64,000 nucleotides of DNA from Schmidtea nova (taxonomy: Eukaryota): contig CM097883.1 of assembly GCA_044892505.1 (NCBI GenBank), forward strand, positions 278,194,001 to 278,258,000, in the 5' to 3' direction. Positions within the stretch are counted from its first letter, which is position 1. Every line of letters starts with the position of its first letter. The notes under the pieces are model-generated. The model had not been told where the DNA came from. It was given only the letters and a program-made list of their open reading frames with translations, and did no database searches. Made by a program: the position numbers and the translations under genes. Positions 41,035 to 63,914 of this stretch are shown here, piece by piece.

Positions 41035-44000
41035 TCAATATCGCGTCAGTTCATAGTCATCCAAGTAACGTGGCGGATTTCGTACTCTTATACTTCTACG
41101 CACTGAATCGTCAACTTCTAACTCTGCTACCTCGGTAGTGTCTTGCATTTGTAATTCGTCCTCTGTGGAATTCTCTTTTTTTCTTATGTCGGAAACATGA
41201 CGAGGCATACCGTCAATTTCAAAATTTGTAGATGAATTTACTTTTGTCACTATTCCTTCATTCCACCGAGAAGTACATCTTGCATCAGGAGGTTTTACAA
41301 AAACCGCCTCTCCCACAGTAAACCCGCCTTCTGGATCTGTCAAGACATCTTCCACTTCATCTGGGTGTCTCCATACGTAATTGAACGTTAGGTCGGAAGG
41401 AGACAAGTCCTCATCAACATCGTCTCTTAACGGCAAATTGTACCAATAAACCATATCCAATGGTTCTTCACCAGGCCGTGCTGCGATACGCTTAATCGTT
41501 CTATGGTTCCGCTCGATTATCCCATTTCCAGCAGGTCGATATGCACATCTGAACATGCGCCTAACCTCCCACTTCTTGCACAGCGAATCCATCGCTCCAG
41601 ATCTAAAGGATGTAGTGTTATCTACGAGTATTTCTACTGGTGAACCTCTTTCCCTAAATATCTGCTCTAAATTTCGAATTATGACTCCAACTTCCTCGCT
41701 AGCTATCTCCCTCCAAATTGCAAACCGACTCGGTCCACAATCGATAAATGTTAAATACAGTGCCGTACTATCGCAAGTGCAACAAGTGCAATGACACTGG
41801 GCCCCCTATTTTTGAGGGGCCCCAAATATTAAATACATTGGAAAAACTTCTCCATTAGAAACAATATATTTTAGAAGATAATTATACTATTATGGAGAAT
41901 TTGGAATACATTTTAGAAAGAAGTTTGGAAGAATTAAATCCAAATGTATGTATCATATATCGAAAAATTTTAACAGTACCCATTTTTCCTTTGTGAACGA
42001 TCATTGTGAACAATCGTTTTCAAAACTAAAATTAATTGAAAATTATCTACGGTCTACAATGTCACAGGAAAGACTTCCTGGATTGGCAATACTGCCGATT
42101 GGAAATGCAACAGCCAGAGCAATTGATTACAATGATATAAATAATGAATTTGCCAGCAAAAAAGCTAAAAAAAATTTACTTTATAATTGGTTTGTATTAT
42201 TTTTTTAAATAAAATCAATAAAAAATTAATTCAAATTAAAAAAAATTTTTTTTAGTTTCTGCACAGGGCCCCCAAAGGTTACAGCACGGCGCTGGTTAAT
42301 TACCTTTTATCCTTATAGTGAGTCACGTCGACCGCGATCCTCTTCCAATTTACCTCGACATCAAGCTTCCCGTGCTTCCATGTAACCGGTGCTGGATCAA
42401 TAGATCTGCATTCAACACATTTGCTAATGACATCTTGCACGTCTTTCTTAGTAATATTTGGGAATTTTCTCTTAGCAAGATGCAACGTTCTTTCAACGCC
42501 TAAATAATGAGCATTGTGAGACTTTACTAAGTCATCCATTCTTGTAATTACTACAGATGTTACATCCTTTACCCAGTAAAACCACGTCTTAGGTACTCTC
42601 GTTAGTATATCCGCTTTGTTCCTCTCTGTAGATACTAACTCTATCGAAAGAGCTAAATTGAAACTTTCTTGCAACTCCTTGATTATCTGTAATCTCCGCT
42701 GAATTAACATCTCTGATATTCCGTGTGTACGTACTCTTTCTTGATTGGACAATATAGAGGTAACCCAACATTTCACAGTGGCTGAATCTGTTTTTATTAA
42801 GATTTCTTTCAGGCCCCAAGCTAGACTTACATTTATGCCTTTAATAACGGCATCTAGCTCGGCTACATTAATATGACATACATCAATCTTCTTCCTCAAC
42901 CAGGACGCATCTTCAACTACATGACCTCCAATTTCCAAACAAACACCCAAGGCCAAACTACTTGCTCACACCATACTACACCGTTAAGTTGTTCTGACAC
43001 ATGCCATTCGCCACGCACCGGGTCATCTTTGGAAACACGAGCAATAGTGTCAGTTAACATCTTTTGCGCAATATGCCCAATTTTATCATCCCATTTTTCT
43101 TCACTACTGTGACGTTTTATGAAACCGCACGCAACTCGCAACCAATTTGCTACTGATTAGTGACCGAGCAATTGACCACAAATTGAAAATAATTGACGTC
43201 TCGACACTTCCTGCCCACTCTTCAAGACAGGAAGCTCATTACCTCTTGTCCAAATCCGATCCATGTTACGCATTGTTATTTGCAATCCTAAAACTCTTGC
43301 ATCATCGAATTTCTCTGGATTTTTCACTTCTAACCCATATTTCTGCAAATGATTTATAACATCCAAGACGCAAACTAATGACTGGTCTACTATTATGTCG
43401 TCTATATAACTATCTGTCGCTTCAGCAATGTCACTTCGCAGACTCAACACCTTTTCAAAACACTAGACATAATCTTTGGGGCTACATTCAACCCGAATCC
43501 CAGTCTAGTCAAATAGTAAAACTTATCGTCATAGCATACATTTTGATACTTCCAACATTCTTCATCGACATGCAACTGTAAATAAGCATTCTTTAAGTAG
43601 AGCATAATAACATCTCTACCCATCTTTCGCCATTGTCTCAATGACTCTCCACACACGTCACTTTGCCCAGTGTGACTCTTGACGAACTTATTCAATTCTC
43701 GGAAATCCATAACAGGTCGAACTTTATTCTTGTTCGTCTGATCCACTGCCATTAATGGAATCGTACCACAGGCGCTTGATTCGGACGGTACAAGCCATCC
43801 TTCCTCTATCCAACGCCTCATCTCTGCATCAAACGGTGCTTGAATATCGTTTGTCATCTTATAACAAGCAATCTTGTTCCACAATATCGCTGGTCCAGAC
43901 TTCCATTTCCATTTGACGACCCATTTCTTGTCGAATCTAGCTTCGAAATCTTCGTCTATAATATTGATGACGTTCGGAGAAGAACTTGCCCCAGTGACAC

Positions 44001-44352
44001 ACTTATCACTCAGCGCACATACCTTCTCTTTCGAAAAAACGACTCCATCTCTACTAATCAGGACACCCCCTAATCTTCCAATAATATCCATGCCCAGGAT
44101 CATTTCAATATCGTAGGGTAATTCTTCGAGAGCCAGACAATTTACTCGTAAATCTATACCTCTAATCACCAAGTTTACTAATATATCACAATAACACGAC
44201 ACTGAGGTTCCATTTGCTATCATTACCTCGTCCTTTCTTCTCAACTGTTTGCTTACCAACGAAGACAAAACAACAGATATTGAGCATCCGGAATCAATCA
44301 AAGCATTTGCCTCTCTCCCATCCACGTTAATTGTGATTATTTGCAACGCCAT
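41035..44352 (-). pseudogene. pol: Gypsy pol (protease, RT, RNase H, integrase)
   Basis: LIDSG, RPVMDFRELN, YIDD, TDS/NKAD, H..H..C..C, VDVTH, NGIIER; frameshifts and a hAT insertion. Confidence 0.93.
41758..42294 (+). mobile_element. Non-autonomous hAT inserted in the Gypsy integrase
   Basis: TIRs CAGTGCCGTACT / AGCACGGCGCTG; TSD GTTAAATA / GTTAATTA; relic CEQSFSKLKLIENYLRSTMSQERL. Confidence 0.9.
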
Positions 44353-45041
44353 TACTGGTTCAATGGAGTAGACACCGGCGTTAGTGTTACCCCGTTGTCG
44401 TTTTTTGAATTCTTATTCGGACATACTCTAGATATGTGATCGGTGCCATTACAAGACCAACACTTTGTACCAAACTTCTTAAAACAACGTTCAGCTACGT
44501 GGCCAATCTTATCGCAATGAGTACAACGTTTTACTTTGTTATATACAACGTTGACACATTCAATGTCTTGAACTCTCGTATTCATCATTGCCCGTGTTAT
44601 CTGAACAATATCCTCCATTGGCATAGTATCAATCTATGGAGTAGCCTGCAACAATCTCGACACGTCTTTAGGGAGTCCTACGACAAAAGCGTTCCTAACG
44701 GAGTTCTCATTCACTCTTGCAAGTTTTGCATGAAATCTTAGATCGGCCAAAAATACATCCACTGATCCTCCAGTCCATCTACAATTTCTCATTTTTTCAT
44801 ATGATAAAAACATACTTGGAGAAAAAGCTTTTTCCAATGCATCCTCGATTGCTTCAAAACTAGCCTTGTCCCTTTCTGATAAATGTTCGTAGACGGCATA
44901 TGCATCACCTTTCAAAAGAATAGGCATAAGAACGTCTATAGTTTCTATCTTCAACATCTTTACAATTGATTTGAGTTGAGCAAACCAGCTTGCAACATTG
45001 CCGGTTCCATCGAATTTTTCCAGATATTTGAAAACTTCCAT
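44352..45041 (-). pseudogene. gag: Gypsy gag with two CCHC knuckles; in-frame TAG at ~44634
   Basis: CTHCDKIGHVAERC, CWSCNGTDHISRVC. Confidence 0.9.
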
Positions 45042-46233
45042 CGATGGCCGCGATAGCTTGTAGTAAAGATAATTAACAAATTTTGGAATATTTATTATAT
45101 AACATCAACTGCCTCTAAAACTTTAAACTCAATTTCAAATACAATCAACATTAAAACAACTGAAATTAAATTAAACAATAATTAAATATAATAACTAAAT
45201 TAAGCACATTTTGTAATATAAAATTAAAAGTACTATCTCTTCGCATTTATATATATATATATATCCTAATGCCTATCAACCCAGGTTTTCCTTTTGATAT
45301 TAACTCTAACTGTTCCCATTGCCAAGGCCTCTATAAAAGTTTCAAATTTAAAAACATTAAAGTTCCACCAAAAAATTAAAAATGATTTAAAGGACAAGAT
45401 AGACACTACGTAGGTTTAAGAGATAATTAAATTTTAGTTAAGTTTTCTATCATAAAAAATACGGAAATTGGAAAAAATCTCTAAAACAATAATCTTTTAG
45501 TCAAAATCAGCAGCGATCGAATACCCTTGAATATATGCATTCTTGAAGGAATATTCGGTCCCTGAATCGAGTAGCGATCATATTCTACATGAGAACGATG
45601 TTGTATGAGTAAGTACATAAAAAACCTTTGCATTTCTGAGATCAATAACTTTTACTTGCTTGAAATAAATGTTTTTATAACTACAAATAAAGTAAAATTC
45701 GTTGTAGACATCACAAAATCGATCGATTTAATACCAGATTTGACGGAAGTGCTCGTAAAATAAAACCAAGGACAAAATATTTGCACGAACCGAATATTTT
45801 GATACTGTGATGATATGATTTTTATAATTTTGCTGTGTTTATTGATTTGCTATGTGTATCTTAAATATATCCTTACTTAAATTGGTTAGTGTTTTGATGA
45901 TTGGAATGATTTCTTTTAATACAATAATAAATTTATTTTGAAGTAGATTATTTATTTTGAATTTTCCGATTAAAATCTTGTCGAATGCTTGTAGATAAAC
46001 CGTTAAATGGGCATTAAACCTTCTATCGGTAGCCCTTGGACCCAGGAGATATTCGGTCAATCATAGTTTCGAAGTTTTCGACGCTCACTGATTGCGAATA
46101 CCCACCCATTTGTTACCAACTTTACCAACTTTACATTGTGACGGGCAACAAGATGGTTAATTCAATGTTTTATGTGTTGAGTTGTTGATGTGAGCCATAA
46201 CAATGTCAAGGTCATATTGACGGTCAACAACCC

Positions 46234-57200: not shown

Positions 57201-60200
57201 CTTTGTAATTGTGATAATTTATTTACAATTAATCTTTAAATGAATTTTAATAAAAACATTTACTTTATTTTTTGCTGTTAGATCGCTTATATTTTTATTT
57301 TGTATCAATATTTATCTAAAGATTAATTATTATTATCAATAATTCTCATAATGACTATAGATCAAATTTTTTTTTATAAACAATAACACAATATTTCGGC
57401 ACAGCCTTTATCAAGTGTGTATCTTGTGTACACTTGATAAAGGCTGTGCCGAAATATTGTGTTATTGTTTATAAAAAAAAATTTGATCTATAGTCATTAT
57501 GAGAATTATTGATAATAATAATAAAAAAAGATCAAAGGTGAAAAAAAGATAATTATGATAAAGATTAATTATAAATAAATTATCGCAATTACCAAAATCC
57601 ACTAATAAATGAAAAATTAACACAACTTAATGAAATATTAATATTATTTAATGCAAAAGTCATATAAATTAAATGAGAAACCCTATATCATCATATGGGC
57701 AGATTTTGAGATTACAAAGATCGATAATTAAATAAAAATTTAATCAACATGTAATTTTTCCAATCAGGATTTTTGATTTTATAATTAATTTTTAAACTCA
57801 CTTGAAGATTTTGGCGGAACAAAACCAAATGGTGAAATATTTAGAAGTGGTTGGTACATAATAGCTTGATTGTCACTTTCAGATTTGACATAATAAAACA
57901 CCTATAATATTAAATTGAGAAATTAATAATTCTGATAAATTCACCCCTTGAGATCCAGCTTTCCATTGCGCGTTGATAACATCAAGTTGACTCGGAATAG
58001 GATAGAAATTACTTAGCCCAGCTTTAGCAATAGATGTTGTATCAATTTTACCTTTGTGAATCACATATGTTTCTTTTGAAACTAAAAACCACTTATTCAT
58101 TAACTTATTTATATATTTCCATTTTCTACAGATAATAGATCTATTTTTTATTTATAGTTCAAAAATGAATTTGAAAAATTAAAAATGGAGATGATATAAA
58201 TTTTAGTGAAAATTATTTATGTTTAACTACTAACATTTGCAATGGATCACATACAAGCACATTTATAATAAAGTATTATATATGACATATATGATATAGT
58301 TATATATATATATATATATCTGTGTGTTACAGTTAATGCATAAATTGCAGTGAGTGTATACACTAACTAGTTGATGTATGATTTCACTTGTTGTTTTAGT
58401 AAAAGTATACATTATTTCAAATGATACATACTATATCTAGTCAATGCATTCATTAACTAATAAGTGTATACACCCACTGATTCGCATTAGTGATAGTATT
58501 AGTTGAATGATTCTAACCTCAAAATTATAAAGACTTGTGCTAGTTTTGTCTACTGCAAATAGAAATCGTGCGAAATTTACGAAAAAGATGAAAAAACACT
58601 AATTTATTAATGATAATTTATCTAATTTATCTCGGATAAAAATATCACGAAAATCGTTTTTTACGAAAATCAAATATTATTTTAGAAAACTATGAAACAA
58701 CTTGGCTATAACCCGGTATTTTCGTTTAAATTAAAATAAAAACAAATTTCAACAAATTAATTTTTATTGCACATTGAATATTTATTTGGTTTTACAAATT
58801 TAAAATACTTTAACTAATCTTCAGTAGAAGGTATATACACTAACAAGTGGAAGTATTCATAAATTTATTTGTGTATACTTTCTCTGATTAGTTTAGTTTA
58901 AGTATACTTAAGCTAGTGGGCGTATACATTTACTAAGTTGATGCTTTAACTGTAACACACACACACACATATAATTATTTCCTGGTAGCAGCATTAATTA
59001 AATATGCTGAATTTTAAATTAATTTAGTGTCATAAATACAAAAGTTTGACTTGTGTGTTCTTTAAATAAAAGATGTTACACTTAAAAATTAAATAATTTA
59101 TTAGTCAAATATCACAAATATCCAATAACGTAACTAGTTTTGAAAACCAAGTAAATATTTTATTATTTCATAAATTCTCGTTAAAATCTCTGTCAAATCC
59201 TTCAAAAGGCGATTTCTACGTTTGAATATAAACCTTCGAGTCAATCGTTGTTTTGATCTTTTCATTTTAGGTCTCTGTCAGGAAAACGTTAGATCTCAAG
59301 CTTTATTTCCACCTAGGTCATTTAAAATCATATAACTTTAAAATCAATATTTTGTTTTACTCTTTCACGATTATTGATGGATTAATATAAATTTAATTAA
59401 TTAATTAGTCTGCTCTTTTACATCTATACTTCCTAGAGTCCCCCTTTTAGATTTATTAATATTTTATAAGTATTTATATTTTTGTTTTTAGTTTTCCGCC
59501 TAATGCATGTTGATTTCCAGGCCTCTAACTCAATTAATTAATTTTTGATAAATTACTGACACCGTTTATGTTATCCTTTAATTTCTGATCACTTTACATT
59601 GTTTTATTTGGCCCAATATTTTAAGCAGTCTCAACAAATATAATATATTTAATAAAAATTGTTATTATCATATCTGAATTTTATATGATTATTATTATAT
59701 TTAATACGAATTTACAGCGAATTTACGTAGAAATAATTCAGGACAAAATTTATTAGAAAGATTTGTTCAGACTAAATGTCTCGATGAAAATACTCATTTT
59801 TATGAATGGAAATATTAAAACATCTTCCAAAGATTGTTTTATTTTCATTTTTTTACAAAGACTAGACCAATATGTATTTTTAAAGCTATTTTGAAAAACA
59901 ATATATTGACCTAGTCTATAAAAAAATGAAAATTTCTAAATAGAAACGAAAAGATCAATGGTAAAAATATGAGATGTTATGATATTTGTCTTATTGTTAC
60001 ATAGTAAGAATTAGATGTAATTACCGTAGCAGTCAACAGTGCCCTTTGACGTTCATTTTTATAAAATGGATCATCTAAATTACTATTTATTACGTCAAGA
60101 AAATCAAGAAAAATTTCTTAAAAATTATCATTGTTTATTGAATTATTTATTCATAATATAAGTGAAGATCTTTGTAAAAATAATAAGAACCTGTATTTTG

Positions 60201-62959: not shown

Positions 62960-63000
62960 GCACCTGATGTTGAGAATGAAGTACTCGAAATATATTGTGC
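62960..63000 (+). ncRNA. Mutated hammerhead ribozyme (same family as 9706-9746)
   Basis: GCAC-CTGATGT-TGAGAATGAAGTACTC-GAAA-TATA-TT-GTGC; ~110 bp of flank shared with the 9650-9765 reverse complement. Confidence 0.65.
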
Positions 63001-63369
63001 AGAATATATATTTGGATTGGCGTTTGTTTTTAATTATTTTAGTACCATGTTNNNNNNNNNNNNNNNNNNNNNNNNNNNNNNNNNNNNNNNNNNNNNNNNN
63101 NNNNNNNNNNNNNNNNNNNNNNNNNNNNNNNNNNNNNNNNNNNNNNNNNNNNNNNNNNNNNNNNNNNNNNNNNNNNNNNNNNNNNNNNNNNNNNNNNNNN
63201 NNNNNNNNNNNNNNNNNNNNNNNNNNNNNNNNNNNNNNNNNNNNNNNNNNNNNNNNNNNNNNNNNNNNNNNNNNNNNNNNNNNNNNNNNNNNNNNNNNNN
63301 NNNNNNNNNNNNNNNNNNNNNNNNNNNNNNNNNNNNNNNNNNNNNNNNNNNNNNAATAATAATTATAAT

Positions 63370-63914
63370 AATTTCTAACATCTCCAAACATAAATGTCTT
63401 TGCCGTTCCACAACCCGATGCTTTTGCTTTTCCAAAAATATAGTATATAAACTTTCTTGTCAAAAATGTGACGCTACTTACATAGGAGAAACACATAGAA
63501 CTTTTCACACCCGACTTAATGAACACACTAAAAACCAAACCAGTAATTATTACGAACACTGGAAAAAAGTACACAAAACAACTCCATCTATAAAAGAAAC
63601 AAAATGCCAGATTCTACAAGAGGGATTCAAAATTTCATTACAATGATTAGCTTCCGAGACTTTTTCATTAAAAAATACAAACCGTCCATCAACATTAAAT
63701 TCGCACAAAAAAAATAATGTTTAAAAAAAATTAAAATAAATTTATTTTCATCCAATAAAATCATTATAAATTATAAAATAAATAATTAAGGTTAGTATTT
63801 ATGACTAAGTTAATATGGCGATTGTAATACACACTTGAAAAGGCTGTGCCGAAATATTGTGTACTTATTTAAAGAAATTTTGATCTATAGCCTTACCATT
63901 ATGGGAATTATTAT

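Follow-up and report, generated by a model that had tools for sequence, protein, structure and literature searches.

Near the end of a 64,000-nucleotide stretch of AT-rich, gapped eukaryotic DNA (the window) lies a short sequence that resembles a hammerhead ribozyme with U and A in place of the core pair C3-G8. Is it a hammerhead, what carries it, and could it cut RNA? An earlier note on this DNA, made from the letters, took it for a U3-A8 variant of the hammerheads of Penelope-like elements (PLEs). Our own reading, to which we give a probability of about 0.85, is that the motif is a minimal hammerhead (min-HHR) in the pseudo-LTR (pLTR) of a high-copy PLE with a C-terminal endonuclease. That it is a PLE min-HHR we regard as very likely. 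Its parts are as follows:

63831–63862, plus strand: minimal type I hammerhead motif with a U3-A8 core, a 3-bp stem II and a 4-nt palindromic helix III
63831–63834 with 63859–63862, plus strand: stem I, 4 bp
63835–63841, plus strand: core strand
63842–63850, plus strand: stem II, 3 bp (G-C, G-C, C-G), with a 3-nt loop
63851–63854, plus strand: GAAA, with the predicted cut at 63858/63859

Direct reading of the plus strand bears out the letters that the earlier note claimed, and the sequence is a real minimal type I hammerhead motif. Stem I of 4 bp, stem II of 3 bp opening with G10.1-C11.1 and the 3-nt loop all fall inside the published limits for min-HHRs. The core strand, 7–8 nt long, reads UUGAUAA plus a further A in six intact copies and UUGAAAA in the copy at 63831. 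On the helix III side the sequence is GAAA-UA-U-U, palindromic from 15.2 to 16.2, with A-U in relatives. The pattern of the earlier note finds seven exact matches in the window and none in 100 shuffles. A structure descriptor independent of that note, in which the 3-8 pair may be any Watson-Crick pair, finds 12; the mean over 30 local dinucleotide shuffles is 0.3. Seven of the 12 belong to the U3-A8 family, two to a sister family with C3-G8 and one is a canonical type I hammerhead; two look like chance matches. The family had been expected to escape searches for CUGANGA, and it does escape such descriptors. The Rfam covariance models likewise give zero hammerhead matches to its copies at E≤10, the one at 63831 included.

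The sister family occupies two places in the window:

9706–9746, minus strand: sister min-hammerhead with a canonical C3-G8 core, a 6-bp stem II and a 6-nt palindromic helix III
62960–63000, plus strand: second copy of this C3-G8 sister, damaged (A9 changed), shortly upstream of the gap in front of the GIY-YIG relic

At both it adjoins the U3-A8 family, among the tails of the latter at 9.3–9.9 kb and upstream of the gap before the relic, as if one element targets the other. The canonical type I hammerhead (38759–38800, minus strand) has a 6-bp stem I, a 4-bp stem II and an ACUAGU palindrome. It matches Rfam HH9 weakly (E 0.35), its flank recurs at 4729–4881 without a ribozyme, and it is possibly a solo unit of a non-LTR retrozyme.

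What carries the motif at 63831? The sequence on either side of it offers three features:

63371–63717, plus strand: broken ORF of Penelope-like type, 3' end, with a Cys-rich linker and a GIY-YIG endonuclease
63742–63759, plus strand: 18-nt block common to the pLTR region of two metagenomic relatives (L020 and L028), with the words CCAAT and AATAAA
63863–63918, plus strand: remainder of the pLTR to its short 3' end; an (AAT)n run fills the window from there on

The earlier note placed a GIY-YIG relic about 130 bp upstream. In agreement with this, the frame at 63356–63646 matches the Pfam family GIY-YIG (PF01541) with an E-value of 1.1e-5, above the curated cut-off and over about 63437–63580, and the ORF ends at 63717, 113 nt before the motif. 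The relic lies on the same strand as the motif. It carries a premature stop at 63644–63646, and the frame shifts before the final piece (to 63717). Its 5' part falls in the gap at 63052–63354, and the reverse transcriptase part is therefore present in homologues only. A HMMER search of 1.84 billion representatives returned 1003 relatives of the window endonuclease at E≤0.001. RVT_1 is matched at E<1e-5 in 8 of the 13 homologues scanned, and in the long ones reverse transcriptase is followed by a C-terminal endonuclease, the layout of a PLE. The earlier proposal of a Penelope pLTR bearing a minimal type I hammerhead with a covariant U3-A8 core is right. The 18-nt block, conserved in two distant families some 90–97 nt before the hammerhead, is a candidate promoter or polyadenylation signal. 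In the closest protein of all (P0001, 67% identity), part of a PLE endonuclease is fused to part of a Rap-GAP (PF02145); the fusion probably stems from a chimeric gene call or from exonisation of an insertion.

To which clade does the element belong? Its motifs mark it as a linker-bearing PLE with a C-terminal endonuclease. The sequence CLCRSTTRC before the GIY-YIG domain is a CxCx5C linker. Three relatives (P0023, P0035 and P0068) have DKT and a fourth (P0020) DKS; these are at most 43–46% identical to the window protein and are relatives, not the window element itself. Published accounts of Hydra-clade PLEs describe a CxCx5C linker, DKT in place of DKG and an endonuclease without CCHH (Craig et al. 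2021, PMC8557442). The window element shares the linker, and DKT in its relatives, but its endonuclease family has kept CCHH: C30, C33 and H63 are invariant among 17 aligned endonuclease sequences and H68 is nearly so, the assignment of CCHH to these four being our own reading of the residues. Because CCHH is kept, we do not file the element under Hydra. The lineage, with two or three pairs in stem II, U3-A8, and the linker together with CCHH, may be an unnamed PLE branch; the four relatives and the window lineage (63371–63580) may form a branch between Nematis and Hydra.

How much of this is new? In anatomy, nothing: each feature of the motif is already published for PLEs. In the parts of the literature compared here, a U3-A8 core is reported from Cercyon elements, and a dedicated descriptor has about 1,300 matches in S. 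mansoni, including UUGAUAAA (Cervera & De la Pena 2014, PMC4209133). The general min-HHR descriptor of that paper allows 3–7 bp in stem I, 3–7 bp in stem II and loops of 3–10 nt. It ends in gaaannuh, that is, GAAA-NN-UH with palindromic A15.1-N-N-U16.1, so AUAU is a standard helix III. The same paper also contains the extra base after position 9, G10.1-C11.1, pairs of motifs on opposite strands, and weak cleavage as a dimer. An earlier account reports natural U3-A8, cites activity in vitro and notes that a two-pair stem II is common (Perreault 2011); a review attributes dimer cleavage to Lunse et al. (PMC6765202). To call the ribozyme extremely reduced was therefore an overstatement, since a 3-bp stem II and AUAU lie within the published descriptor and C. 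briggsae has the same GGC/GCC stem (PMC4209133).

The nearest published counterparts are Sm3 and Sm4 of S. mansoni (PMC4209133). Sm3 has the same UUGAUAAA core strand as the window family, and Sm4 has UUGAAAAA. Both are type I and U3-A8, with an extra base between 9 and 10.1 and GAAA-NN-UH palindromic from 15.2 to 16.2; they too sit in a pLTR 3' of the endonuclease, mostly as solo copies, with pairs on opposite strands. Two differences stand out in the portions of that work considered here. Stem II in the window has 3 bp and a 3-nt loop, the lower limit of the descriptor, whereas the two listed U3-A8 schistosome examples have 4–6 bp; and opposite-strand motifs lie 11–29 nt apart in the window but about 100–700 bp apart in S. 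mansoni. The PLE min-HHR of C. briggsae (PMC4209133 Fig. S3) shares the 3-bp GGC/GCC stem II, the 4-bp stem I and a four-base helix III, but has a C3-G8 core and a 5-nt loop II. U3-A8 combined with a 3-bp stem II and a 3-nt loop is absent from the 56 min-HHR examples listed in PMC4209133, a search too small to call the combination unpublished.

The earlier note's figure of about eight more copies holds: six others are intact and two are decayed (at 7.85 kb, with stem II broken, and at 9.53 kb, with both core and stem II broken). That note did not list two further partial arms, at 7.8 and 9.5 kb on the minus strand. Copies come as inverted pairs, and the ten other arms therefore amount to five insertions:

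57331–57558: head-to-head solo-pLTR insertion with intact motifs at 57418–57386 (minus strand) and 57430–57462 (plus strand)
32806–33009: head-to-head palindrome with intact motifs at 32913–32881 (minus strand) and 32943–32975 (plus strand); both ends reach gaps
33206–33433: head-to-head palindrome with intact motifs at 33313–33281 (minus strand) and 33339–33371 (plus strand); tail on the left arm only
7754–7896: decayed palindrome; stem II of the right arm is broken and the left arm is without the core
9430–9600: old decayed palindrome of the same U3-A8 family

Six of the seven intact motifs are thus arms of three head-to-head palindromes, their starts 11–29 nt apart. The one at 57.4 kb is complete and measures 228 nt. 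A 41-nt tail (57518–57558; 36–41 nt, given shared letters) is found on its right arm only, and a 14-nt target-site duplication (57317–57330 and 57559–57572) lies exactly at the ends of the palindrome; duplications of this length were reached by 15 of 1500 AT-rich control pairs. The start of an ORF in the tail was not established, an ATG at about 57498 meeting a stop after 17 codons (read by eye). At the centre of the 33.3-kb palindrome the start of the motif is repeated. Isolated tail fragments of the family occur at 39100–39122, followed by (TA)n, and at 9308–9358 (minus strand) and 9854–9878 (plus strand).

Such structures have precedents in the published descriptions seen. PLE insertions may carry inverted pLTRs, an optional tail of 30–40 nt at one end and a target duplication (Arkhipova et al. 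2013, PMC3846280; Craig et al. 2021, PMC8557442), and the tail has been equated with the distance between two start sites of reverse transcription (Frangieh et al. 2024, PMC11167929). The window copies agree with these accounts in their head-to-head form, one-end tail, target duplication and AT-rich or microsatellite targets. They differ in that the inserts are reduced to arms of about 90–130 nt beginning at or just before the hammerhead, and in that the duplication is 14 nt long, against 8–10 in the rotifer examples seen. Non-LTR retrozymes, as far as described in bioRxiv 10.64898/2026.07.22.740005, are likewise non-coding and PLE-derived, with a type I hammerhead, but are head-to-tail tandems; the window copies are head-to-head pairs and so fall outside the definition of a retrozyme.

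Could the palindromes be fold-back artefacts of assembly or amplification, made from one repeat, instead of insertions? Three of the five touch gaps, those at 32.9 and 33.3 kb are neighbours across a single gap of 196 N, and the two arms of a palindrome have private changes in common. Yet the palindrome at 57.4 kb lies in unbroken sequence with its 14-nt duplication and one-sided tail, the centres differ in all five, and the arms at 9.5 kb are decayed. One locus of a related metagenomic family (L016) is also a head-to-head pair, and the form had been published already (PMC4209133, PMC3846280, in the parts compared). We consider an artefact highly improbable, and the motif at 63831 is in any case independent of the question. 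For insertions, the private changes common to both arms fit fold-back copying of one template, as Arkhipova proposed. Alternatively, one donor could have yielded two cDNAs, each primed on a different nicked strand, as we infer from published two-strand activity.

A second alternative is that the hammerhead is a chance resemblance and that the repeats are either microRNA hairpins or the MITE-like terminal inverted repeats of a DNA transposon. The hairpins are indeed perfect: RNA read through a palindrome folds into a single one (-72.3 kcal/mol for 101 nt, z -18.5), and Rfam microRNA models match the palindromes. These matches stay below the gathering scores, as expected of any long hairpin, and we rejected a microRNA identity on that ground. 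The arm ends are uneven and without a terminal motif, a single arm stands 3' of a GIY-YIG frame, and in relatives compensatory changes keep the hammerhead pairs. This alternative, largely refuted by the ORF-linked relatives, has next to no chance of being right.

Those relatives bring us to the question of whether the fold has been under selection. Within the window the core is conserved over its flanks: the copies at 63.8 and 57.4 kb agree at 32 of 33 positions in the motif and at 44 of 60 in the 3' flank. A soil-metagenome run (X5) contains one contig that extends from the endonuclease into the motif (63370–63853). Of its 26 substitution places, 11 fall in the 53 nt before the motif; none of the 25 listed, and hence at most one, falls in the motif. 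The repeat is very abundant in another run (X1), with 11,452 contigs on a 560-nt stretch, but this run possibly lies near the window's own source, and we do not treat it as independent. Its summed depth rises from about 1.2 M over the ORF to 3.5–4.0 M just 3' of the core. The rise fits an excess of solo pLTR ends, although summed depth is no copy number and an indel at 63838 breaks alignments, and we leave it out of the evidence for ends at the cut site. The run search listed no RNA run with this sequence. In the one run guessed to be RNA (X20), seven contigs cover the endonuclease part but not the motif, which has no bearing on expression. All four runs consist of contigs, in which RNA ends are not visible.

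A search of metagenome contigs with a pattern that has the geometry of the motif but lets five pairs vary freely gave 38 loci. In three a PLE protein match lies within the 1200 nt fetched, always on the same strand and ending 24–190 nt before the motif. No such match was present within the fetched 1200 nt of the other 35, many of which are chance matches. Two of the three (L020 and L028) encode endonucleases with 46–50% identity to that of the window and are U3-A8; the third (L036) has 35% identity and is C3-G8. Across the window, L020 with L028, and L036, in that order, the outer pair of stem I is A-U, U-A and G-C, the 3-8 pair U-A, U-A and C-G, the second pair of stem II G-C, A-U and C-G, and helix III U-A, A-U and A-U. 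Behind the same endonuclease, compensatory changes keep the fold in relatives whether the core is U3-A8 or C3-G8, which is new support for the hammerhead.

The scan as a whole points the same way. The loci, chance matches included, fall into 20 groups with 100 free pairs between them. Of these pairs 61 are formed, where shuffles give 44.9 and 5 of 20,000 shuffles reach the observed value; in 4 groups all five pairs form (2 of 20,000). For the largest family these permutation figures use L020, with four of five pairs, a weaker choice than L026 with five of five; L002, L006, L009 and L024 were merged into that family by eye. Well-paired groups without a shown link to an element are L005/L014, L007/L012, L029 and L032. 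The relaxed pattern found no loci in viral contigs, and blastn matched none of the 38 metagenome loci as a close DNA relative of the window family.

The family of L020 is related to that of the window and is also U3-A8. Its stem II often has two pairs (the third is U-U in 7 of 9 loci), which is under the minimum of the published descriptor. Its loci are L001, L002, L006, L009, L016, L017, L020, L023, L024, L026, L028, L031 and L034. The 40 nt 3' of its motif are 96% conserved, equal to the motif itself, and conservation within that family therefore does not single out the core on this side.

Would the RNA cut? The copy at 63831 is an outlier here. It is one base short of the family's 8-nt core strand, lacking the unpaired base between 9 and 10.1 that is found in the other six of seven intact window copies; the longer form accounts for 185,652 of 259,247 depth units in X1. 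ViennaRNA prefers for its stem I a register slipped by two bases, in which U17 is paired; the cleavable register occupies about 1% of the ensemble here and 44% in the family form. The 63831 copy is thus predicted to misfold. Nearest-neighbour energies favour the double hammerhead over two monomers in neither form (-13.0 against -18.4 kcal/mol for the family form, -8.0 against -17.8 for the 63831 copy), and the z-scores for monomer folding are unremarkable (-0.45 to -1.85). Energy models leave out tertiary contacts, magnesium and protein, and the values therefore point to weak or assisted activity, in line with published reports, and not against the fold. We think it unlikely that the 63831 copy itself is active; the family form would on balance be expected to cleave detectably, as a dimer or with protein.

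How might such a ribozyme work in the element? Following the literature, a single motif alone would be unable to form helix III. On a tandem transcript, the same-sense motifs of a 5' and a 3' pLTR would base-pair through their AUAU palindromes and exchange strands of stem I, giving a double hammerhead in which U3-A8 would replace C3-G8 as the tertiary Watson-Crick pair. Cleavage after AUU would be slow, would probably depend on help from the element's own protein and would trim multimeric RNA. No tandem same-sense pair with an ORF between was seen in the window, and the paired motifs there lie on opposite strands and so form no double hammerhead in cis. The scattered copies would be ORF-less insertion products, two pLTR ends placed head to head during target-primed insertion into AT-rich DNA, with a target duplication and a tail on one arm. 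In read-through RNA the long hairpin buries the ribozyme, which makes these copies passengers.

In the one PLE for which in vitro tests exist, insertion was unimpaired by ribozyme mutations, and RNA-seq showed no reads ending at the cut site (PMC11167929). Might the motif be a non-catalytic signal derived from a hammerhead, its fold kept as a site for protein binding or positioning and its cleavage in cells negligible? The 3-8 pair, which has a role in the catalytic fold, is Watson-Crick in all three PLE-linked families (U-A, U-A and C-G) and in the sister family of the window, and helix III stays palindromic through its changes. U3-A8 cores are active in vitro according to literature cited by Perreault 2011, and the motif of an Anolis PLE cleaves with protein and is rescued by a swap of 3 and 8, as reported in PMC11167929. 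A purely non-catalytic signal is on these grounds very unlikely.

The rest of the window is rich in other mobile sequence. A decayed Polinton/Maverick-like element at about 19100–31900 contains a weak rve_3 integrase-like match and an adenovirus-type protease (PF00770, E 9e-7); by eye it also has frames like a packaging ATPase, a capsid and a protein-primed polymerase, none of the three with a Pfam match. Broken frames of a Gypsy-like LTR retrotransposon, with aspartyl protease and integrase matches, lie at 41035–45104 (minus strand). Short tandem arrays occur at 3184–3439 (43-nt units), 7186–7551 (about 205 nt) and 33639–33860 (15 nt).

Could the head-to-head insertions themselves record what happened to the RNA? 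The start of most arms lies a few bases upstream of stem I. At 7.8 kb, by contrast, the left arm starts immediately after the predicted cut or at most 4 nt ahead of it. Centres of such insertions could be a DNA record of the 5' ends of RNA templates, with this arm a copy of cleaved RNA. The four letters shared at its joint (AATA/TATT) are also the usual start of a right arm. With a single such arm among ten, and microhomology perhaps sufficient by itself to put the joint there, we think a cleaved template quite unlikely.

As a class, the motif is a small addition: its kind is known by the thousand in each genome, and U3-A8 has been published already. An abundant family with one of the smallest forms of stem II, a C3-G8 sister and matched relatives does make a natural series for asking how small a PLE hammerhead can be. 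If arm starts were to pile up at AUU/GUGU across the genome, they would be the fossil traces of in vivo cleavage by the hammerhead, and cleaved RNA would serve as a template for insertion, a point left open in the parts of the PLE papers compared. Short palindromic insertions let template ends be mapped from DNA alone, and this bears on cleavage by PLE hammerheads in the cell.
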